From Spirochaetota bacterium (GTDB taxonomy: Bacteria; Spirochaetota; UBA4802; UBA5368): a DNA stretch of 64,000 nucleotides. Below, piece after piece: positions 33,306 to 42,912 of this stretch; positions within the stretch are counted from its first letter, which is position 1; each line of letters begins with the position of its first letter. Under the pieces are notes generated by a model that searched no databases, had not been told where the DNA came from, and was given only the letters and a program-made list of their open reading frames with translations. The translations under genes and the position numbers were made by a program. The stretch is from the NCBI GenBank assembly GCA_035477215.1, contig DATIKU010000036.1, forward strand, positions 3,265-67,264, written 5' to 3'.

Positions 33306-33833
33306 GATAACCTCCTGCAAGTTTTAATAATTCATTGAATAGAAAGCCAGGGAATCCGCATCCACACTTTCGGGCACGACTGCCCATTAAACATTGACAA
33401 TATTCTTATCTTTAAATAAGAATCCCCGCAATTGCGCATTCCCGCGGCGAACGGCATTTGCCTTGTTCGCCGGTTGAAACTGTAAAAACACGCTCATGGA
33501 TGTCAACATGAATTCATTCTTTTTTGTATATTTTAGGCATTTTTTAGGGCATCTATCATCATTCTGAGTGGTTAAATATATTCAATATTATATATACGCA
33601 TAATATTATGTGGTACTTTCCGGCCCATGGGCCCGCCGGGGCACGGAAGTGAGAACGATCTTGTACACGAAAAATGGGGGCGTGTTCGACCCGCCCCCGC
33701 CTGTGACGCGGGGAGACCGGGCGGGAAAAATTGATCCATATTGCACCGGTTTGTCCGATTTCGATCAACGGGTAAAATCGCGCCCGGTTGCCTTGCGCGG
33801 CCGCAACGCGCGCCGCCATATACGGGGAGGTCC

Positions 33834-34763
33834 ATGAAGCACGACAAGTACTGGATGGCGCTGGAGCAGGTGAAGGGAGTGGGCCCGGCCTCAATGCGAG
33901 AGATTTACGACGCGCTTAAAGGGCCCGGCCTCTCTATCGTCGACCTCTTCACGCTCAGCCCCGAGGAGATGCGCGCCGAGCTTTCACTCCGCGATCCGAT
34001 CGCCTCCGCGATCGACACCGCGCGCGGGAGGATTTCACTGATCGAGGACGAGTATTTTACGCTCATCGACGCGGGGATCGAGATCGTCCTCTTCTTCGAG
34101 GAAGGCTATCCCGAACGTCTGGCGCGCCTGCTTAAAAACGAGGCGCCATCGATGCTGTACGTGTATGGAAACCGCTCTCTTCTGCGAAACAAGGGCGCGG
34201 CGGTGCTGGGTGAAAAAAGCATAAGCGAAAAGGGCGAACTGGTCACCTACCTTGCGGCGCAGGAGCTGGTACGCCATCACATAACCGTTATCAGCGGCCT
34301 CGCCCGCGGCGCCGACACGATCGCGCACCGCGTGGCACTCGAAAGCGGCGGGGAAACCATAGGCGTTTTACCGTACGGATTCTCCCAGCTCAAGATGCCC
34401 GAGTCCCTCAGGGAAGTATACAATCCCGACTCCATGCTCCTTGTGTCGGCCTTCGGCTTCCCGGCCGAATACTCCACGTTCAACGCCTTCCGGCGCAACA
34501 GGCTCGCCTGTGCGCTGTCGAAGGCCGTGTACATCGTCGAAGCGCCCGCGGAGGGCGGCACCTTCGAAGCGGCCAAGTCGGCGAAGACGCTCGGCGTGCC
34601 GCTCTACACCACCGAGTACGCGGAGTACCCCGACACGGCCGCGGGCAATCCCGTACTCATGCGCGATCTCGGGGCGCACCCCGTCCGCGGGCGCCTCATC
34701 AACAACGCGCTCTCGCCCAACCTCGACCGGCTAATCGCCGACGTCAAGTTCGGGGACCGATAA
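33834..34763 (+). CDS. dprA: DNA-processing protein DprA (Smf family)
   Basis: 309 aa from ATG 33834 (GGGGAGG upstream). N-terminal SAM-like WMALEQVKGVGPASMREIY. Rossmann-like core AAVLGEKSIS..VISGLARGADTIAHRVALESGGETIGVLPYG...FRRNRL. Confidence 0.75.
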   Translation: MKHDKYWMALEQVKGVGPASMREIYDALKGPGLSIVDLFTLSPEEMRAELSLRDPIASAIDTARGRISLIEDEYFTLIDAGIEIVLFFEEGYPERLARLLKNEAPSMLYVYGNRSLLRNKGAAVLGEKSISEKGELVTYLAAQELVRHHITVISGLARGADTIAHRVALESGGETIGVLPYGFSQLKMPESLREVYNPDSMLLVSAFGFPAEYSTFNAFRRNRLACALSKAVYIVEAPAEGGTFEAAKSAKTLGVPLYTTEYAEYPDTAAGNPVLMRDLGAHPVRGRLINNALSPNLDRLIADVKFGDR

Positions 34764-34812: not shown

Positions 34813-35652
34813 CTATTTCATCGCATCGGGAAAGAAGAGCGGTGATCCGTATTTCGCGATACCGTATTTTTTGATGAGCCTCTGCGCCTCTGCCGACACC
34901 ATGAAGTCAGCGAACGCCTTCGCCCCGGCCGCGTTCACCTTCGGCCATTTCGCCTCGTTCACCTCGATCACATGGTATATGTTCAGGAGGTCCTTGTCTC
35001 CTTCGCGGAGAATGGCGAGCGCAAGCCCTTTCTTCATGGAGAGATAGGTCCCGCGGTCGCTCAGGGTATAGCCGGATTTTTCCGATGCCACCGAGAGCGT
35101 CTGCCCCATGCCGAGGCCCGTTTCATGGAACCACTTCGCGCTTTTCGGGTCCGTCTCCGCCGATTTCCACAGCTTCGTCTCTTTTGCGTGGGTACCCGAA
35201 TTGTCCGCTCGCGAGATATACAGCGATCCGGATGACGCTATTTTCTTCAGCGCATCGACGACGGATCCCGCCCTGTTTATTCCGGCCGGGTCCTTCTTCG
35301 GTCCAACGATAACGTAATCGTTGTGCATGACGATGCGCCTGTTCTTCCCGAACCCCGCGTCCATGAACTTCTTCTCGGCGTCCGGCGAGTGCACCAGCAG
35401 CACATCGGCCTCGCCGCGCTCTCCCATGGCCATCGCCTGCCCCGAGCCCACACCGATGGGCTTTACGAAGTATCCCGTCCTCTTCTGGAAAACGGGAATG
35501 AGCTCGTCGAGCAGCCCCGAATCGAGGGTGCTGGTCGTCGTGGCCAGAATTACCCCTTTATCCTTCCCCTTCTCCTCCGACCACAGGGCCGTAGCCGCCG
35601 CGAACATCGTCACCGCGGCGCACAGCGTTATTATCTTTACTGTACTCCTCAT
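34813..35652 (-). CDS. tupA: Periplasmic tungstate/molybdate-binding protein, TupA-like
   Basis: 279 aa from ATG 35652 (AGGAGG upstream), with a signal peptide. VILATTTSTLDSGLLDELIPVF carries the TTTS motif I associate with the TupA family, then GVGSGQAMAMGERGEADVLLVHSP. No permease or ATPase gene follows. Confidence 0.7.
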   Translation of the reverse strand: MRSTVKIITLCAAVTMFAAATALWSEEKGKDKGVILATTTSTLDSGLLDELIPVFQKRTGYFVKPIGVGSGQAMAMGERGEADVLLVHSPDAEKKFMDAGFGKNRRIVMHNDYVIVGPKKDPAGINRAGSVVDALKKIASSGSLYISRADNSGTHAKETKLWKSAETDPKSAKWFHETGLGMGQTLSVASEKSGYTLSDRGTYLSMKKGLALAILREGDKDLLNIYHVIEVNEAKWPKVNAAGAKAFADFMVSAEAQRLIKKYGIAKYGSPLFFPDAMK

Positions 35653-35808
35653 GGATACCTCCTGATCGGTTATCCTCATACATGTATTACACGCGGCAGT
35701 CAAGCCGCGCCAAGGCGCATACTCGATTCGGTTTCACGCGGAGAATACGCCGGCCAGGAGTCCGCGTTCACCTCGGCGGCCGGGGGTGGGCATTTCGCGA
35801 ACCGCGCG

Positions 35809-36021
35809 TCAGTCGACCGCGAGCATCACATTGGAGGCCTTTATGACCGCGTACACCTCTTTTCCCTGCGCGAGACCAAGCGAATCGGCGGATGTTTTGG
35901 TAATGATGGATACGATCTCAGTGCCCCCGGGAAGCTCCACCACTACTTCCGTGTTGACGGCCCCGTGCGTCAACGCCTTAACTTTGCCTTTGATCATGTT
36001 ACGCGCGCTTATCTTCATCAT
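35809..36021 (-). CDS. mop: Molbindin (Mop), single TOBE-domain molybdate/tungstate-binding protein
   Basis: 70 aa. MKISARNMIKGKVKALTHGAVNTEVVVELPGGTEIVSIITKTSADSLGLAQGKEVYAVIKASNVMLAV is the canonical Mop/TOBE pattern. Confidence 0.85.
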   Translation of the reverse strand: MMKISARNMIKGKVKALTHGAVNTEVVVELPGGTEIVSIITKTSADSLGLAQGKEVYAVIKASNVMLAVD

Positions 36022-36105
36022 GGTGCCTCCTGTATCTTTCGTTAACGCATGACGATAGAATGATATACACGCGCACGTTAGAAATCAACATTCTTTCCGT
36101 TTGCC

Positions 36106-36403
36106 TCAGGAATCCAGCCTGAAGCGTACGGGGAGCCTGATCCGGCGGCGCATGGGGACCCGGTCCTTCGCGAGGGCGGGCCGGAAGCTGATGCCCCGCG
36201 CACAGGCGATCGCCGCCGCGTCGAACTCGCGCCCGGGCGATTTTACGACGCTGCCGAAGAGCACCGTGCCCGCATTCCCGCCGCGTTTCACGCCGGGCAT
36301 CCGTTCGATGTCGGAAAGGTCTGCGCGCTTCCCATCAAAGGTTCAGGGCAAAGGCGGCCGCGTAAAACGTCGCCACCCCGTACATAATGGAGTGAATGTT
36401 CAT
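36106..36403 (-). pseudogene. Mini TonB-like gene split over two frames: 22-aa TM start (MNIHSIMYGVATFYAAAFALNL*) plus TonB C-terminal-domain-like ORF
   Basis: ATG 36403 directly abuts the upstream stop. After 22 hydrophobic codons comes a TGA. The adjacent frame then reads TFDGKRADLSDIERMPGVKRGGNAGTVLFGSVVKSPGREFDAAAIACARGISFRPALAKDRVPMRRRIRLPVRFRLDS*, resembling a shortened TonB_C. No Pro-rich linker is present. Confidence 0.4.
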
Positions 36404-37483
36404 CTATCTGATCTCCTCGATCAGCATGATATGAGAAAGCCCCCACACGTCCCTGTCCACGTAATAATCGTTGACGGGTCCCAGCATGGGACCGGCCGCG
36501 GGTTTCTTGCCGTCCATTTTATCGATGAGCATCATGCCGCGCCCGTCAGCGGTCCTGAATATCTCGGTACCCGAGAGAAGCGAGCGATAGCCGTCGCAGG
36601 CGACGAAGAGAAAGAAATTTTTCGGTCCGCAGCCGGGAAAGTTTTTAACGAGCAGCGAGGCAAGGCTGTAGCCCTCCGCGTTCGAAATCCCCTTGTAACC
36701 CTGACCGTGGCCGGTGCGCACCCAGCCCTTCACCGCCGCGCGCTCGACGCCATCCAGGCGCACGGGTTTCGCCTTTCCGCCCGCAAGTACCGTAAGCGAC
36801 GCGGAGACGCACTTTTCGCCTTTCTTCATTACAGGAAGCAGGGAGTTGTCCACCTCGACCTCGCTGATGGATATGCGTTTGACATCATCGAGATAGCGGC
36901 CGGTATCCGGCTCGGCGGCGCATACCAGCCGCAGCCCTTTGATGTTTTCCCGATGGGCGTTCCATTTATAGGGCTCGTCCTTTTTCGGCTTGCTGGGCAC
37001 GAGCTCTTTGCGGTCAAAAGCGAGTACGACTGGATCCGAATCGTCGGTCATGGTGAGCTCGCCGTAGCTGAAATGCACGCGCCCTCCGTCGGCGTTCTCG
37101 AACGTGACGATCATGTCCAGCGGACGGTCGAAGGCGGCCTTCTCCGGTTTCTTGACGGCCACGCCCTCCAGGATGTGCAGCACCGGTATGCCGGAGTAGC
37201 GGTAGGTCCCCATGAATTTGCCGTCGGGCTCCACCTCGCGCGTGCGGATGTAGGTCGGCGAGAATGCGTTGAGCGCATCGGCGCCGAATGTGTAGACCTT
37301 CTTCGTGAGCCCTGAGACCTCGAGCGTGGTGCCGCTTTTAACGTCCTGCTTCACCGCGAGCGGCGTGGCCCCGGTTACGGCCATGATCTCCATCTGGTTT
37401 TTCGGGAAGACGAGCCGGTAACCGGCGAAAAGCACCAGCGCGCCCGCCGCCACCGCGATCAGGATGATGTGATTTTTTTTCAT
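36404..37483 (-). CDS. Membrane-anchored periplasmic protein with two tandem Oxidored_molyb-like (YedY/sulfite-oxidase-fold-like) domains
   Basis: 359 aa with an N-terminal TM (IILIAVAAGALVLFAGY). Two repeats follow the pattern ...YSGIPVLHILEG...MIVTFENADG...LRLVCAAEPDTGRYLDDVKRISISEV and ...GYSLASLLVKNF...FLFVACDGYRSLLSG...VDRDVWGLSHIMLIEE. Confidence 0.45.
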   Translation of the reverse strand: MKKNHIILIAVAAGALVLFAGYRLVFPKNQMEIMAVTGATPLAVKQDVKSGTTLEVSGLTKKVYTFGADALNAFSPTYIRTREVEPDGKFMGTYRYSGIPVLHILEGVAVKKPEKAAFDRPLDMIVTFENADGGRVHFSYGELTMTDDSDPVVLAFDRKELVPSKPKKDEPYKWNAHRENIKGLRLVCAAEPDTGRYLDDVKRISISEVEVDNSLLPVMKKGEKCVSASLTVLAGGKAKPVRLDGVERAAVKGWVRTGHGQGYKGISNAEGYSLASLLVKNFPGCGPKNFFLFVACDGYRSLLSGTEIFRTADGRGMMLIDKMDGKKPAAGPMLGPVNDYYVDRDVWGLSHIMLIEEIR

Positions 37484-37718
37484 TTGCGTGCCTCGGTCTG
37501 GTTTGAAGTCGGTTAACAGCGAAGTCAGGTATTTTAACCGGCCCGGCGATTAATCGGACCTTCCTCTCTATGAAAAATTCGCACGGGCGGGATTTATCCC
37601 ACCCGTGCGCTTCAGCATACGCTTAGATTATGGACTTACACATTTTAGAACCGCGACCTGGTACCGCATTCTTCTTCGATAAATCTGCCTGACGGTGTTA
37701 TCCACCTATCGAATGCCG

Positions 37719-40070
37719 TTAAAACTCTGCGCTGCCCCCCATGTAGAACATCCTGCCGGGACCGGGGTTAAACGGATCGGCATTGTAATCGTCGAGGACG
37801 TTCTTGCACAGCACATAGATTTCAAACTTTTCCATGATCTTCTGGGAAAGCTTTACGTTGAAGATGAGCGGATCATGAAGCTCAACCGTTTTATAATAAT
37901 CTGTGGAATAATCTCCCGGCGTAGCTACAGCACCCCCTGGATTGGATTGCATTACATAGAATTTCTCATTCATCTTGTAAGTGCCCCAGATATTGAGGCT
38001 CGTGCCAGTGATGAAATCGAAGAGTATCTGCGTCATGAACTGATGCTCGGGACACTCCTGAACCTCCTTGCCTTTGGTCACATAAGAGTCATCATCATCC
38101 CTTGCATTGGTATAGATGTATGACTGTGAAAGAGATACATCTGCGATTTTCATAACATTCTTGATGTTGAAAGACACAGTGTTCTCAACACCCTGCATAG
38201 TCCGACCATCAATATTCGTAACTAAATCTGGGCCACCGGCAGGATCCCGGAATTTTTCAAGCTTATCCCGGAACTGTGTATAAAAATAATCACTCCGGAA
38301 ACTGATAGCCTTATCAAGGAAGAACAATTCAAACCCGATATTATAGTTTATTGATCTTTCAGGTTGTAGTTCCTCAGTGACACTGGCTTTATCATTATCA
38401 GAAATTTGTGAGAGGGACGGAAACTCGACTTTCATCCCCGCGGAACTCCTAACGACAAGAAAGTTTTTCAAAGGTTCATAGATTACACCCGCGACAGGAT
38501 TGATTGAATCGACGGTTCCCCACAGCATGGAATCCTCATCGGGGAGAAGCCCATCCGCATAGGGATCGGTTGACAACGAACGCTTCTTGAAGCGATCGAA
38601 TTTCTGTGCGTCATACGATGCTCCCACGGTTATACCAATATCACCTACTTGCGTATTGAATTTCATTTCATCTTCAATACCAACCGTTATATACGACGCA
38701 TCCATGTCTCTCACTTTATAATAGGAACCCGTTGGGACCAATGCAACCATATCCTGCTGTTCCTTGATAAAATTTTCATTTCTGTAATGAAGCACGGCTG
38801 AAAGCTTGTTCCATGAGGCAAGTTTATAGGTTGGATAGATATAGAACCCGTAACTCGCTTCGTAGTGCTTAGACGGCTTCCATCCATTTGAATAAATCTG
38901 GGTATGTTCAAGATCTCGCCAGTAATAGAGGTTATTCATCTGAGAAACATAGAATATGCTTGCCCGAACCGATAAATCCCCTGACTCAAAATGTATATAC
39001 GGAGAAACATCATATCGATAATCATCGCTCCATTCCCAGGCCCTCTGCTCAAAAATATTAGCAGTTGTCGGGTCAGCTTTCCATTGACCAACGCCACCTG
39101 CGGTAATCTCGTAAGCGTTCAATGCATTGGGATAAAAACCAAGAAAAAGCTGTTTATTTTGATAGTAGCTTGCTGAAACGCCGGCTTCGAGTGAATCGGT
39201 AAAATTATAGCCGGCTTTTCCTGAAACAAAATACTTCCGGTATTCCGTGTGGTCCCACGAATCCCCGCCGTTAATATACGTCCTCAATGCGGCATTCGCG
39301 GCATATATTGTATCATAGTCATAACCTGCACCATACACTTCGCTGTTGGTGAGTTTTTTAAACCACTCCTTTCTTTTATCGGCATCAAGTTTTTTTGATA
39401 CGTTATATCCATCTGAATTCATCATTGATGCCGTCAGCCAGTAGTAGAAATCACCTATTGGCGCACCATGAGAAACGTTAAGCAGGTAATTATTATGCTC
39501 TCCATACTCAGCACTCACATTCGTGTACATCTCTTCAGGTTTTTTAGTGACAACATTGATTGTACCGAACGTACCCCTCGCCCCGTAGAGCGCCGACGAC
39601 ACGCCTCTGTTCACAATGATCTTGGAAGCATTCATAACGGGAATTCGTGATATATCCCCGCCGCCGCCATCATAAATCTCTTCGAATGGCAGGCCATCGA
39701 CCAGAATAACTATTTTACTTTGCCTGAAGCCCCTCAGGGTAAATCCGGCCTGCCCCTTCTGGGTCTGATACACATTCATTCCGGGGACCATCTGCAGCGA
39801 CTGGTCAAGCGTCTTGTCCCCCCTCGCCTTTATGTCCTTCTCCGTTATCTCCGTCGTCGTCGACGCGTCCTCGATGTTCGCGATCGCGCGGTCTTTAACC
39901 ACGATCTCGCCCATCTCGAAGGCCTTCGTCGCCTTCGCTCCTTCCTTTGAATCGGTTGCCTTTTCCTTCGCCACCGCGGCATCCCCATCCACGGATGCGT
40001 CCTGGGCGAAGAGCGGTCCGGCGGCGAACGCCAGCGCCACAACAAAAAGCCAGATGTAGAATTTCTTCAC
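37719..40070 (-). CDS. TonB-dependent outer-membrane receptor
   Basis: 783 aa. GTG start at 40070 (GGAG upstream) and a signal peptide. Plug-domain motifs TEITEKDIKARGDKTLDQSLQMVPGMNV, TLRGFRQSKIVILVDGLP. 22-strand-type beta-barrel composition with a C-terminal ...MGGSAEF. Markedly AT-richer than its neighbours. Confidence 0.9.
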   Translation of the reverse strand: MKKFYIWLFVVALAFAAGPLFAQDASVDGDAAVAKEKATDSKEGAKATKAFEMGEIVVKDRAIANIEDASTTTEITEKDIKARGDKTLDQSLQMVPGMNVYQTQKGQAGFTLRGFRQSKIVILVDGLPFEEIYDGGGGDISRIPVMNASKIIVNRGVSSALYGARGTFGTINVVTKKPEEMYTNVSAEYGEHNNYLLNVSHGAPIGDFYYWLTASMMNSDGYNVSKKLDADKRKEWFKKLTNSEVYGAGYDYDTIYAANAALRTYINGGDSWDHTEYRKYFVSGKAGYNFTDSLEAGVSASYYQNKQLFLGFYPNALNAYEITAGGVGQWKADPTTANIFEQRAWEWSDDYRYDVSPYIHFESGDLSVRASIFYVSQMNNLYYWRDLEHTQIYSNGWKPSKHYEASYGFYIYPTYKLASWNKLSAVLHYRNENFIKEQQDMVALVPTGSYYKVRDMDASYITVGIEDEMKFNTQVGDIGITVGASYDAQKFDRFKKRSLSTDPYADGLLPDEDSMLWGTVDSINPVAGVIYEPLKNFLVVRSSAGMKVEFPSLSQISDNDKASVTEELQPERSINYNIGFELFFLDKAISFRSDYFYTQFRDKLEKFRDPAGGPDLVTNIDGRTMQGVENTVSFNIKNVMKIADVSLSQSYIYTNARDDDDSYVTKGKEVQECPEHQFMTQILFDFITGTSLNIWGTYKMNEKFYVMQSNPGGAVATPGDYSTDYYKTVELHDPLIFNVKLSQKIMEKFEIYVLCKNVLDDYNADPFNPGPGRMFYMGGSAEF

Positions 40071-40225
40071 GGTTTTCTCCGTTCACATGTATGATAACGC
40101 AGGCTGGTAAATCCCTCTCCCGGTTGGAAAGGGCGGCGGGCAGGGAGGTAAAATGAGCGGTTTTACCGGTGGAAACACCCGCATGCCAGGAGCCGTATCA
40201 CACGGATGATTCTGAAAAACCTGCG

Positions 40226-40320
40226 CCGTACCCTTTCCAACGCGGGAGGCCGCTCCGTTTCCGGTTCGACCCTGATGCCCTCGTCTCCATGGCCGGATGC
40301 CTTAGAAAATGAGGGTCGGG
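40226..40320 (-). promoter_or_regulatory. Candidate Moco-type (molybdenum/tungsten cofactor) riboswitch aptamer in the 5' leader of the TonB-dependent receptor
   Basis: The minus strand reads CCCGACCCTC...GAGGGCATCAGGGTCGAACCGGAAACGGAGCGGCCUCCCGCGUUGGAAAGGGUACGG. The GGAAACGG...GCCUCCCG-N4-GGAAAGG core matches what I recall of the E. coli moaA Moco RNA (..CGCCUCCCGUAUCUGGAAAGGUGUAC AUG). The outer helix CCGACCCU/AGGGUACGG is plausible. Confidence 0.5.
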
Positions 40321-40567
40321 ATTACGCTGGAAGTATGCTCAGACATACACCGAAAAAGTCAACCAAATATGTAATATTTTGTTATATACAGTAATATTTT
40401 TCATTTTTTAAAAATATAAATCATTATTATTACCATTATACACCAATTATCCGGGAATATATACACGTAATGTTTTGATTATCACCATATTTACTGAAAA
40501 AATCATGGAGGAGGGAGTCAACCGAGGGTGGTTGCCAAACGGGGTCTTCCAGAAGTACCATTTATTT

Positions 40568-41509
40568 TTACGGCGTCGAATACACGATCTTCCCGGAGTC
40601 GTTGAAGTCGTAGTTACCCAGCGCGGCGACCTTTGCGCGGAAGTCGGTCGAGTTGAGCGCGCCGATGAAGGCCTGCACCCCCTTCTTGAAGAAGGTCTCC
40701 TTGGTGAGCACCATGTCGAAGCTCTCGCGCACGATGGGAGCGAACGGAAGCCCCAGCAGGCGCGACACCGCGACGGTGGCGATTCCCACGTCGGCCTGGC
40801 CGGCGAGTATGGCCAGCCCCGCCTCGAAGTGCGTGTAGACCTCGTTTTCGTAGCCGGTGATGGCCGACGGATCGATGCCGCCTTTCTGTAAATGGTAATC
40901 CAACAGCAGGCGCGTTCCCGAGCCCTTCTGGCGGTTGACGAAGCGCACGCGCCCTCCGGCGAGATCGGCGAAGGCCTGCACGGGCCGTTCGAGCGAAGTA
41001 CCCGAGAGAAACCCCAGCTCGCGATAGAACAGGTGCACCACCGCCACGCCGCGCCCTTCGAGATAGCGCGCGAGATACGGGATGTTGTATTCGCCGCTTT
41101 CCGGATCGAAGAGATGGCACCACGCCATGTCGGTGGCGCCCTCCGCGAGAAGGCGCAGGCCTTCGCTCGAACCGGTCGAGGACGAAAAGATGTTGAAGCC
41201 GTCGCCCTCGTGCTTCATGGTGCCGAGCAGTATGTCGAGCACCGGGTCGTTGCTTCCCGCCGCCAGCAGCGCGTCATCCGTCACGGCGCGCACGCGGTGC
41301 TCGTCCTTCACCCCCTCGAGCGCGTGCGAGCGAATCCACTGGTCGATGAGCTGCCGGGGGAACACCCACTTGCCGGTAACGCGCGTGCAGGGGATCCTGC
41401 CGTCCTTTATAAGCGCGTATACCTGTTTCTCATGGATGCCAAGGTACTCGGCCACCTGCTTGGTGTTCATCATTTCGCCCGGCATATGTCCCTGCCGCGT
41501 CGCCGTCAT
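40568..41509 (-). CDS. Excisionase/MerR-type HTH plus periplasmic-binding-protein-like (ModA-like) domain regulator; resembles tungstate-responsive TunR-type regulators
   Basis: 313 aa. MNTKQVAEYLGIHEKQVYALIKDGRIPCTRVTGKWVFPRQLIDQWI is an HTH_17-like domain. The C-terminal part AAGSNDPVLDIL...SSSTGSSEGLRLLAEGATDMAWCHL...NRQKGSGTR...GQADVGI is a PBP-like anion-binding fold. ATGA overlap with the upstream PAS gene. Confidence 0.65.
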   Translation of the reverse strand: MTATRQGHMPGEMMNTKQVAEYLGIHEKQVYALIKDGRIPCTRVTGKWVFPRQLIDQWIRSHALEGVKDEHRVRAVTDDALLAAGSNDPVLDILLGTMKHEGDGFNIFSSSTGSSEGLRLLAEGATDMAWCHLFDPESGEYNIPYLARYLEGRGVAVVHLFYRELGFLSGTSLERPVQAFADLAGGRVRFVNRQKGSGTRLLLDYHLQKGGIDPSAITGYENEVYTHFEAGLAILAGQADVGIATVAVSRLLGLPFAPIVRESFDMVLTKETFFKKGVQAFIGALNSTDFRAKVAALGNYDFNDSGKIVYSTP

Positions 41510-42912
41510 CGTTTGCTGTGCCGCCGGTATCGCTCGAGCTCCCTGGTGGCCGCTTCCAGCTCGGCCGTGCGCGAAGCGATGCGCTCCTCGAGCTCCTGGT
41601 TGAGGCGCCGTACCTCTTCCTGTGCGCGCCGGTGCTCGGTTACGTCGACCAGGCTGAGAATGAGCCCGCCCACGGCGCCGTCGGCCTCCCTCACCGGCTG
41701 CAGGCTCCAGTCGCAGTAGATCACGTCCTCGCCGGGACGCGGCGAATAGTCGATCGGGTCCATAAAGGCGTAATGCGGCCGCGCTTTCTCAACAACGCCG
41801 CGGAAGGTCGCCCTGTGAGACGGGTTCATGAAAACCTCGAAATGGTTGCGGCCCGGATAAAACTCGGGATCACGGCCGTTAAGCCATGCGTAGGCGTGGT
41901 TGACGCGTATGTAGTTGAAGTCCGTATCGAGATAGGCGATCATCAGGTTGATGTTCGAGAACATTTTTTCAAGGAGCTCGTTGTTCCGCCCGAGGGCCTC
42001 CTCAACGCGCTTTTTCTCGGTGATGTCCTCGGTGGTCGCCAGGAGGCGCGCCGGAAGGCCGTCCGCGTCGCGGTTGAACACCACGTGGCGGCTCCGCAGC
42101 CAACGCCACTCGCCGTTGGCGTGCTTGGCGCGGTACTCGATCTCGGCGATCTCGCTGTCGCCGATCCGGGAGGTCTTGTTCAAATATTCGATCATGCCGG
42201 GCGAGTCGTCCGGATGCACCACGATACCCGCCATGCCAAAGCCTTCATCGCGCATTTGCTCCGTCGTGTAGCCGAGGATCTTCGCAGCCTGGCCGTTCGA
42301 ATAAGCGGTCCTGCGCTTCTTCAAATCGTAGACGTGCAGAATGCTGGGCGTTGTGTCGGCGATGCGCCGAATGAAGTTCCGCGTTACCCGAAGCTCCTTC
42401 TCGTGATGCTTCAGCTCCGCCTCGACAGACGCCAGATCGCTGAGGTCCGTGATCAGTATGCACGCGTGCGTCTCTCCGGCCAGGTTCAGGGGGAAGATGG
42501 ATACGTACGCCGGCACAGTACGCCCGTCGCCGGCACGGAGGTCCAGCTCGATCCTCGCCGCGACGCCGTCGAGTCCCCTGTAGAATAAATCCAGGAAGAC
42601 ATCCATCTCCTCCTGGCTGATGAAATCGTAAAAGTTCGCGCCGGTGATTTTTTCGGGCGGAAAGTCCGTAAGGCGGAGAAAGCCCTGGTTCCAGATGCGG
42701 ACAGTGGCGTCAGTATCGAGCACAACGGCGCCCTCGTTCATCGTGTCGACGATCGCGCGGTATGCGCGGTCGGCCTCGGCCTGCGCGAAAGGGGCCGGGA
42801 CACGCCGGGCCGACGCGGTCTTCCCCTTCGTGCCGGCGCCGCCTGCGTTCGGCTCAATCCGTTTTTCGCTCCCAGGGTCGGACCGCCAGGTCGTTTTCGG
42901 CTTTCTGCTCAT
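41506..42912 (-). CDS. PAS-domain sensor protein (three PAS/PAC-like modules) lacking any recognisable output domain
   Basis: 468 aa. YRAIVDTMNEGAVVLDTDATVRIWNQGF..., RRIADTTPSILHVYDLKKRRTAYSNGQAAKILGYT...GEWRWLRSRHVVFNRDADG, LEKMFSNINLMIAYLDTDFNYIRVNHAYA.... Ends in the coiled coil EEVRRLNQELEERIASRTAELEAATRELE, where a HisKA domain would normally begin. Confidence 0.7.
   Translation of the reverse strand: MSRKPKTTWRSDPGSEKRIEPNAGGAGTKGKTASARRVPAPFAQAEADRAYRAIVDTMNEGAVVLDTDATVRIWNQGFLRLTDFPPEKITGANFYDFISQEEMDVFLDLFYRGLDGVAARIELDLRAGDGRTVPAYVSIFPLNLAGETHACILITDLSDLASVEAELKHHEKELRVTRNFIRRIADTTPSILHVYDLKKRRTAYSNGQAAKILGYTTEQMRDEGFGMAGIVVHPDDSPGMIEYLNKTSRIGDSEIAEIEYRAKHANGEWRWLRSRHVVFNRDADGLPARLLATTEDITEKKRVEEALGRNNELLEKMFSNINLMIAYLDTDFNYIRVNHAYAWLNGRDPEFYPGRNHFEVFMNPSHRATFRGVVEKARPHYAFMDPIDYSPRPGEDVIYCDWSLQPVREADGAVGGLILSLVDVTEHRRAQEEVRRLNQELEERIASRTAELEAATRELERYRRHSKR

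Follow-up and report, generated by a model that had tools for sequence, protein, structure and literature searches.

Tungstate and molybdate are commonly taken to cross the outer membrane by diffusion through porins, and the known TupABC/TunR systems have, to our knowledge, no outer-membrane component; TunR regulators were reportedly described in Desulfovibrio by Kazakov et al. in 2013. We analysed a stretch of 64,000 nucleotides (hereafter the window; contig DATIKU010000036.1 of GenBank assembly GCA_035477215.1, positions 3,265 to 67,264) from an uncultured anaerobic spirochaete, whose genome assembly of 3.57 Mb is 95% complete. Positions 34813-42912 of the window hold seven features, all on the minus strand and in one direction, among them the gene of a TonB-dependent receptor preceded by a riboswitch of the molybdenum cofactor/tungsten cofactor (Moco/Tuco) type, the gene of an exported protein named P359 here, and genes for a TunR-like regulator, a Mop molbindin and a TupA-like binding protein. 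We propose, with moderate confidence, that this locus encodes the outer-membrane and periplasmic half of a tungsten (possibly molybdenum) acquisition pathway, energised by TonB and feeding TupA-TupBC. An earlier note on this DNA had likewise suggested that the cluster may serve energised outer-membrane uptake of tungsten or molybdenum (W/Mo), and comparative genomics, as far as it reaches, supports that reading.

The locus can be compared with several described systems. In the BtuB-BtuF-BtuCD system of Escherichia coli, as here, a cofactor riboswitch leads a TonB-dependent transporter, the binding protein and the ATP-binding cassette (ABC) importer are encoded partly elsewhere, and energy is provided by ExbBD-TonB. 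Our locus differs from it by its P3-less Moco/Tuco riboswitch, by a receptor that resembles BtuB at the level of the plug only, by the presence of a TupA-like binding protein and by an extra protein with a tandem sulfite oxidase (SUOX) fold, to which a CcsA/ResB-like pair was ancestrally added. With TupABC/TunR systems, such as TupA of Eubacterium acidaminophilum and TunR of Desulfovibrio, the genome shares a TupA-like protein with a TTTS motif, a TupB-like permease, a TOBE-bearing ATPase and a regulator combining a helix-turn-helix (HTH) with a periplasmic-binding-protein-like (PBP-like) domain. However, tupA here ends the receptor operon, tupBC is unlinked and TupA stays below the equivalog cut-off. 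The receptors OprC for copper, CntO for metal-pseudopaline and ZnuD for zinc, together with the lanthanide receptors, also exemplify the energised uptake of scarce metals, free or chelated, and their folds match that of our receptor equally well; the sequence relation to OprC, CntO and ZnuD is at superfamily level only, whereas regulation and partners point to tungsten. The loci examined showed no genes for metallophore biosynthesis. According to a passage of PMC11734730, Pseudomonas aeruginosa uses a ModA secreted by the type VI secretion system and a non-TonB outer-membrane protein, IcmP; as that passage presents it, this too is a dedicated outer-membrane step for a group-6 oxyanion, with components unrelated to those found here.

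Full-text literature searches returned no paper tying a TonB-dependent receptor to tungstate, to TunR or to the Moco riboswitch, searches on molybdophores and the molybdenum cofactor returned no description of such a receptor, and TonB is never mentioned in Regulski 2008 (PMC2408646). The new elements are the conserved spirochaetal operon with P359 and its CcsA/ResB-like partners, a fusion to WtpA, the reconstruction of the operon from congeners, a natural deletion and a mosaic receptor.

The receptor gene, its riboswitch and its recurrent neighbours

The leader of the receptor gene matched the Rfam covariance model RF01055 over its full length (model positions 1-135) with 58.2 bits against a gathering score of 36 (E 2e-11), and this was the sole Rfam match in the window at gathering score. 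The positions of the P3 hairpin were deleted in the cmscan alignment, which assigns the riboswitch to the P3-less class, whose representatives correlate almost perfectly with Tuco metabolism (Regulski 2008, PMC2408646). Since this class tracks the use of a tungsten cofactor, the riboswitch argues for tungsten. Between aptamer and start codon, a short segment is complementary to the conserved 3' core of the aptamer (~40225-40248) in the minimum free energy (MFE) fold of 40055-40340 (z-score -3.9) and fits a candidate expression platform. The genome has only one other Moco/Tuco riboswitch, also P3-less (C18:111498-111619, equivalent to L004:11499-11620 on the minus strand; 46.7 bits). It lies upstream of a cytochrome c3-like open reading frame (ORF) and an operon for the small and large subunits of a [NiFe] hydrogenase, HycI and HypB, with HypF divergent from it, and a hydrogenase is an unusual target for this type of riboswitch.

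The regulator encoded upstream of this leader fuses an excisionase-type HTH (PF12728 HTH_17, 53.8 bits) to a PBP-like domain of the COG1910 type (PF12727 PBP_like, 201.8 bits). This is the architecture of the TunR family, which we take to be tungstate-responsive. The gene is under purifying selection, with a ratio of nonsynonymous to synonymous substitution rates (dN/dS) of 0.10 relative to the congener locus L017. Its start is overlapped by 4 nt by the stop of a gene for a protein with three PAS domains and no output domain according to Pfam, and L017 carries the same PAS and TunR-like pair (74% and 93% identity). The AT-rich region between the regulator gene and the aptamer probably contains the promoter of the riboswitch-led transcript and may contain a putative TunR operator. 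A word present upstream of both the riboswitch and mop, CGTGTATAT, was considered as a shared operator and dropped, as the genome contains 29 copies against ~27 estimated by chance. Of the dual control suggested in the earlier note, both elements are thus in place, the TunR-like gene upstream and the riboswitch in the leader; their operation we infer only.

The receptor starts with a signal peptide (a hydrophobic N-terminus ending in AQD), carries at residues 54-60 a TonB box, GEIVVK, that is nearly invariant across 31 homologues, and has Phe as its last residue. Pfam recognised the Plug domain (PF07715, 72.8 bits, residues 69-170) and gave no match to the barrel family PF00593. An AF2 model with a predicted local distance difference test score (pLDDT) of 84.9 and a predicted template modelling score (pTM) of 0.85 displayed a 22-strand-type barrel enclosing the plug. 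Foldseek aligned this model with BtuB, FpvA, PfeA, FecA, OprC and others over ~720-850 columns (E 1e-25 to 1e-30), and it resembled all solved TonB-dependent transporters to a similar degree (11-16% identity), none being preferred. The NCBIfam scores remained far under the cut-offs (70.7 versus 836 for BtuB, the best one, 43 versus 745 for CirA and 32 versus 493 for FepA), and a profile of the receptor family matched solved chains over the plug only. The receptor is a member of the TonB-dependent transporter superfamily that belongs to no characterised family. A place among the defined siderophore or cobalamin receptors had been named beforehand as the outcome that would speak against W/Mo uptake, and the receptor falls outside both groups. 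Its own family comprises 180 matches, most of them from metagenome-assembled genomes (MAGs) of Spirochaetota.

Gene context was drawn from genome searches and from 76 genome loci containing relatives of the receptor (32-70% identity), obtained by scanning one genome per species. Most of these loci belong to uncultured Spirochaetota and Leptospirales, and some to Desulfobacterota, Smithella and Bacteriovoracaceae. Neighbours were counted by tblastn with the window proteins and with proteins annotated in L039, L017 and L086; TunR, Mop, TupA and the riboswitch, taken within 8 kb, served as markers, and riboswitches were searched with a covariance model trained on six riboswitches, five of them receptor-linked and the sixth the second one of the genome. 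At least one marker was present at 47 of the 76 loci. TunR was found at 24-26 loci (24 at an identity of at least 38%), Mop at 18-19, TupA at 16 and TupB at 17. A riboswitch located upstream on the receptor's strand was detected at 11 loci, three of them with two copies; all 15 related riboswitch matches were 127-133 nt long, and that of the window scored equal to its relatives. P359 directly followed the receptor at 34 loci. The linkage between receptor and W/Mo genes is recurrent and not a peculiarity of this genome, the other outcome that would have spoken against W/Mo uptake.

In its fullest form (L034, L036, L039), the locus contains tupC-tupB-tupA divergent from a string of genes for the receptor, P359, CcsA-like and ResB-like proteins, exbB, exbD, exbD-like, tonB, mop and tunR. 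The divergent arrangement of tupA-tupB-tupC and receptor, with a promoter region in common, is seen often, these three loci being examples. A distant clade (L063, L067, L080 and L086; L086:4403-16117) is organised otherwise: a first riboswitch precedes an aldehyde:ferredoxin oxidoreductase (AOR) gene, and a second one is followed by a 243-aa lipoprotein-like gene, the receptor and a 243-aa uncharacterised protein. The operon continues with an ABC_membrane protein devoid of ATPase, a MobB-like NTPase, MoeA, MoaA, MoaC and MoCF. Because the markers recur in such differing arrangements, the link between the receptor clade and W/Mo or its cofactor is broad and independent of gene order. All features of the gene order claimed in the earlier note were found in place in the window, on the minus strand (Table 1).

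Table 1. Features of the receptor locus, in window coordinates
Feature	Position	Strand	Basis or remark
PAS-only protein, 468 aa	41506-42912	minus	Pfam PAS_4, PAS_9, PAS_3
TunR-like regulator, 313 aa	40568-41509	minus	HTH_17 + PBP_like
AT-rich intergenic promoter region (probable)	40333-40567	minus	GC ~0.42
Moco/Tuco riboswitch aptamer, P3-less	40214-40332	minus	RF01055
Candidate expression-platform segment, 30 nt	40112-40141	minus	MFE fold
TonB-dependent receptor, 783 aa	37719-40070	minus	Plug domain, AF2 model
Foreign central segment of receptor gene	37895-39763	minus	GC 0.44, no congener DNA homology
Terminator-like hairpin	37580-37609	minus	between receptor gene and P359
P359, 359 aa, tandem SUOX/PruR-fold	36404-37483	minus	AF2 model, fold comparison
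Deletion scar	36106-36403	minus	CcsA-like, exbD, TonB fragments
Mop molbindin, 70 aa, single TOBE domain	35809-36021	minus	TIGR00638
TupA-like binding protein	34813-35703, likely start 35652	minus	PBP_like_2, NF041772
dprA	33741-34763		convergent to locus

P359 and its membrane partners

The AF2 model of P359 (pLDDT 86) consists of two domains, at about residues 50-207 and 228-357, each of them a SUOX-like fold of ~130-150 residues without catalytic domain. This is the build of the periplasmic PruR proteins, which share the SUOX fold, have no Mo-ligand Cys and act as binders of small pterins (PMC11194511). In VIA-align comparisons, domain 1 superposed on Klebsiella PruR 7rkb with Z 14.2 (rmsd 2.3, 121 residues aligned) and domain 2 on Vibrio vulnificus PruR 7kom with Z 14.6 (rmsd 2.1, 117 residues aligned). 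Both also matched the Moco domains of sulfite dehydrogenases with Z ~14, whereas unrelated chains dropped under Z 6. The description of P359 as a tandem Oxidored_molyb-like protein, given in the earlier note, is therefore correct at the level of fold. The link to SUOX and PruR comes from fold comparison only: the P359 profile matched no solved structure among the sequences of the Protein Data Bank (PDB), the protein has no Pfam match of its own, PF00174 was touched weakly by 5 of 20 homologues (E 0.006 or worse), and a protein atlas returned unnamed clusters and a single PF00174 cluster at 0.87, to be taken as a lead only. P359 is tethered to the membrane by an N-terminal hydrophobic anchor (MKKNHIIL...), in place of which many homologues have a lipobox-like Cys. 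The family comprises 368 representative clusters (E <=0.001) among 1.84 billion proteins.

Like PruR, P359 is exported, its halves share the same fold and it has no catalytic context; unlike PruR, it is a membrane-tethered tandem that adjoins a TonB-dependent receptor and not a DcpA-type signalling protein. Like MsrPQ, in which YedY/MsrP has a membrane partner, MsrQ, it was ancestrally paired with membrane proteins of the heme-binding type. These are truncated proteins, one CcsA-like (~248 aa) and one ResB-like (~290 aa), which always follow P359 (37 of the 76 loci; L039:11705-13343 and L017:6638-8257) and whose sequences suggest a heme-handling-type pair that stands apart from cytochrome c biogenesis.

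Two proteins of independent origin are natural fusions of a P359-like tandem (27% identity, E 3e-21) with WtpA, and the WtpA part is bona fide (TIGR03730, 288 bits versus a cut-off of 242.75). A predicted complex between TupA 28-279 and P359 44-359 obtained a score of 0.00, which gives no verdict and counts as evidence neither way. In five proteins of ~590 aa (P0158, P0166, P0170, P0152 and P0212), a distant P359-like tandem SUOX module is joined to a domain with the tetrapyrrole-methylase fold. Second, weak P359-like matches (27-30% identity) in tungsten loci, at L030:5482-6357, L040:15534-16460, L042:13400-14221 and L062:13400-14314, are probably such methylase-fused paralogues, as in G010, G011 and G015 (~600-aa frames).

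These features are open to another explanation, in which the receptor would import ready-made W/Mo cofactor, molybdopterin or a precursor, P359 would bind it and the ancestral CcsA/ResB-like pair would take it across the inner membrane, with TupA, Mop and TunR as mere neighbours. The superposition of both P359 domains on pterin binders and Moco domains speaks for it, as does domain 2, where an invariant D297-G-Y299 and a nearly invariant W347 could, from motif positions only, be equivalent to the PruR pterin contacts N102, Y104 and W160; domain 1 lacks the Tyr in the homologue alignment. P359 also has no twin-arginine (Tat) motif in its N-terminus and is therefore exported without cofactor, not as a folded Moco enzyme of the SUOX family (sulfite oxidase, YedY/MsrP). 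The CcsA-like partner has a Trp-rich motif, GA.W...GW...W..H, and conserved transmembrane His residues typical of proteins that handle planar cofactors, and a cofactor riboswitch before a cofactor importer would follow the logic of the B12 riboswitch and BtuB. However, this genome possesses MoaA, MoaC, MoeA and a MoCF domain gene and makes its own pterin cofactor. MoaC and 3-14 AOR genes were present in all 15 relatives with a P359 orthologue, none of which consequently needs pterin scavenging, and P359 occurred in none of seven relatives lacking both MoaC and AOR; cofactor auxotrophy was rejected for this genome and for the P359 relatives alike. Moreover, the CcsA/ResB-like pair has been lost here, yet receptor and P359 are intact with mop and tupA behind them, the fusion ties the P359-like module to an oxyanion-binding protein, and tupABC often has its promoter region in common with the receptor. 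We consider such scavenging unlikely.

A deletion scar and the rest of the proposed pathway in the genome

Three congeners (L101, L102 and L103) carry, with L017, the genes for receptor, P359, CcsA-like, ResB-like, ExbB, ExbD, ExbD, TonB, Mop and TupA in one string, and have ~3.9 kb of intact genes where the window genome has a 300-nt scar. As these three congeners possess the whole operon, the window genome is the derived one. The scar is made of the first 65 nt of the CcsA-like gene (36338-36403, from blastn against L017), a 71-nt exbD fragment (36268-36338) with 90% identity to the genome's copy on contig C58, and a TonB C-terminal fragment (36106-36300; TonB_C, 26.6 bits) that corresponds to the last 64 tonB codons and is 78% identical to C58. 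What the earlier note had called a mini-TonB remnant does include this TonB C-terminus, but it is no single remnant, being the composite scar of a ~3.9 kb deletion. A small ORF at 36403 was considered as the TonB N-terminus and rejected after comparison with the congeners, which identified it as the start of the CcsA-like gene. An intact exbB-exbD-exbD-tonB block is located on C58:47460-49640 (L088:3462-5635, minus), between a HEAT-repeat gene and ligA. It is orthologous to the block that congeners have within the operon (70-89% identity; ExbB 89% identical to the operonic ExbB of L017) and therefore appears relocated. With the queries used, no CcsA-like or ResB-like copies of the operon type were found in the genome. 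In this genome the ~3.9 kb has collapsed to the scar, the energising block has its place elsewhere and the CcsA/ResB-like pair has been lost.

The receptor gene itself has a composite origin. Its central 1.87 kb has a GC content of 0.44, versus 0.57 for the genome, and no DNA homology to L017, whereas identity to L017 at the DNA level (blastn) is 77-85% in the leader, in the first 100 and last 55 codons and in P359. Residues 61-180 share 88-93% identity with the low-GC locus L012, and the foreign part reaches up to 93% identity at the protein level to low-GC Spirochaetia MAGs. The gene is a recombinant mosaic whose surface-exposed part has been swapped in situ by allelic replacement, the ends, the riboswitch and P359 being native. 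In two low-GC relatives (L012:160-5177 and L025:7826-13046), tandem duplicated receptor genes stand before a single P359. The hairpin behind the receptor gene is a strong one: 13 pairs, 10 of which are G-C, precede a T-run. It is conserved as part of the block shared with L017 and might serve as an attenuator within the operon.

This history raises the question of whether receptor and P359 are relics decaying in this genome, with only mop-tupA working from its own promoter and tungstate entering through porins. The deletion left non-coding fragments, the lost pair has no other copy detected by our queries, a promoter-like site precedes mop (36060-36088) and the terminator-like hairpin follows the receptor gene. 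Against decay, the frames of receptor and P359 are intact and full-length, the recombinant receptor allele included. P359 keeps every family-invariant residue with a dN/dS of 0.13 relative to L017, which indicates purifying selection; the riboswitch has a score on a par with its relatives, and an intact orthologous exbB-exbD-exbD-tonB block has been kept on C58. A relic is, on balance, quite improbable.

The remaining components fit a pathway ending on tungstate. Mop is a typical molbindin (TIGR00638, 90.9 bits versus a cut-off of 55 in NCBIfam). The TupA-like protein (PBP_like_2, 166.6 bits) has an ATTTST motif that is invariant in 13 homologues, the TTTS of TupA being presumably the anion-binding motif. 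It gave the single TupA match of the genome and is the only protein of TupA, ModA or WtpA type found there, with no ModA over cut-off and no WtpA. The earlier note had stated that the locus itself lacks permease and ATPase genes, which was borne out, and had advised looking for tupBC elsewhere: a tupB-like permease gene and a gene for a TOBE-bearing ABC ATPase were found, unlinked, on contig C13:17973-19762 (L011:5974-7763), with no binding protein adjacent and flanked by alpha/beta hydrolase and PHP-family phosphatase genes. The TupB-like protein scored 271 bits with NF038017, and the pair shares 71% and 50% identity with tupB and tupC adjoining tupA in L039. Since the genome has no other such binding protein than TupA, and the permease and ATPase are orphans elsewhere, these observations again point to tungsten. 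Seven AFOR_N matches (AOR family, hence AOR-type) were counted in the genome.

A proposed route for tungsten

On this basis we propose the following route. Scarcity of the tungsten cofactor would lead the P3-less riboswitch to permit expression of the receptor, and oxyanion-responsive transcriptional control would be added by the TunR-like regulator, on which the PAS protein may act. The receptor would then bring a tungsten species across the outer membrane with energy from ExbB-ExbD-ExbD-TonB, once encoded in the operon and now on C58. In the periplasm, membrane-tethered P359 would handle the imported species. Tungstate would end on TupA and enter through the C13 TupB-like permease with its TOBE-bearing ATPase; in the cytoplasm, Mop would buffer the oxyanion, and the metal would supply the seven AOR-type enzymes. 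The species imported may be an oxyanion, a thio- or organic complex, or a pterin-bound form or pterin cofactor. That the route ends on tungstate is suggested by the promoter region shared between tupABC and the receptor, by the terminal position of tupA in the genus, by the action of Mop and TunR on oxyanions, by the fusion of a P359-like tandem to WtpA and by the self-sufficiency of P359 relatives in pterin.

Several points weigh against this proposal. The fold of P359 is that of pterin or Moco binders and not of oxyanion binders, and the conserved heme-handling-type CcsA/ResB-like partners would be unneeded by a plain oxyanion route; their loss possibly leaves the pathway of this genome altered or crippled. 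Because of the hairpin behind the receptor gene, the genes further down may escape control by the riboswitch. The TupA-like protein scores 218.8 bits versus the NF041772 equivalog cut-off of 400. Finally, 15 of the 76 loci have no marker and 14 more have P359 alone, many of these loci being short.

An unrelated substrate such as siderophore iron, cobalamin or heme, with the tungsten genes adjacent by coincidence, would agree with the automatic public names of relatives (cobalamin or iron receptors), with BtuB as the best weak NCBIfam match and with CcsA/ResB-like neighbours that recall heme handling, but we find it highly improbable, since those names rest on plug-level similarity (70 bits versus 836), the linkage to riboswitch, TunR, Mop, TupABC, AOR and Moco-biosynthesis genes recurs across Spirochaetota, Desulfobacterota and others, and no Fur box, B12 riboswitch or iron genes were noticed, RF01055 being the only riboswitch at gathering score in the window.

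Tungsten acquisition thus remains the explanation that we prefer. A bolder form of it, which we put forward only tentatively, is that the receptor, the Sec-exported tandem SUOX/PruR-fold protein and the CcsA/ResB-like membrane pair constitute the conserved core of the first recognisable TonB-dependent tungsten pathway, with a new kind of periplasmic machinery that would either extract tungsten from an imported thio-, organic- or pterin-bound complex for TupA or WtpA, or carry a tungsten cofactor inward. The window genome would then be a natural partial knockout.

If true, a dedicated energised outer-membrane route would alter the view of tungsten limitation in anoxic, sulfidic habitats, where W/Mo is scarce or bound and where such organisms rely on numerous AOR-type tungstoenzymes. 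For experiments, concrete constructs and comparisons are available in the 11-gene operon, in the WtpA fusion and in the variant created by natural deletion. The finding also offers testable functions for the small, uncharacterised P359 family, for Sec-exported SUOX-fold domains and for truncated CcsA/ResB-like proteins outside cytochrome c biogenesis.

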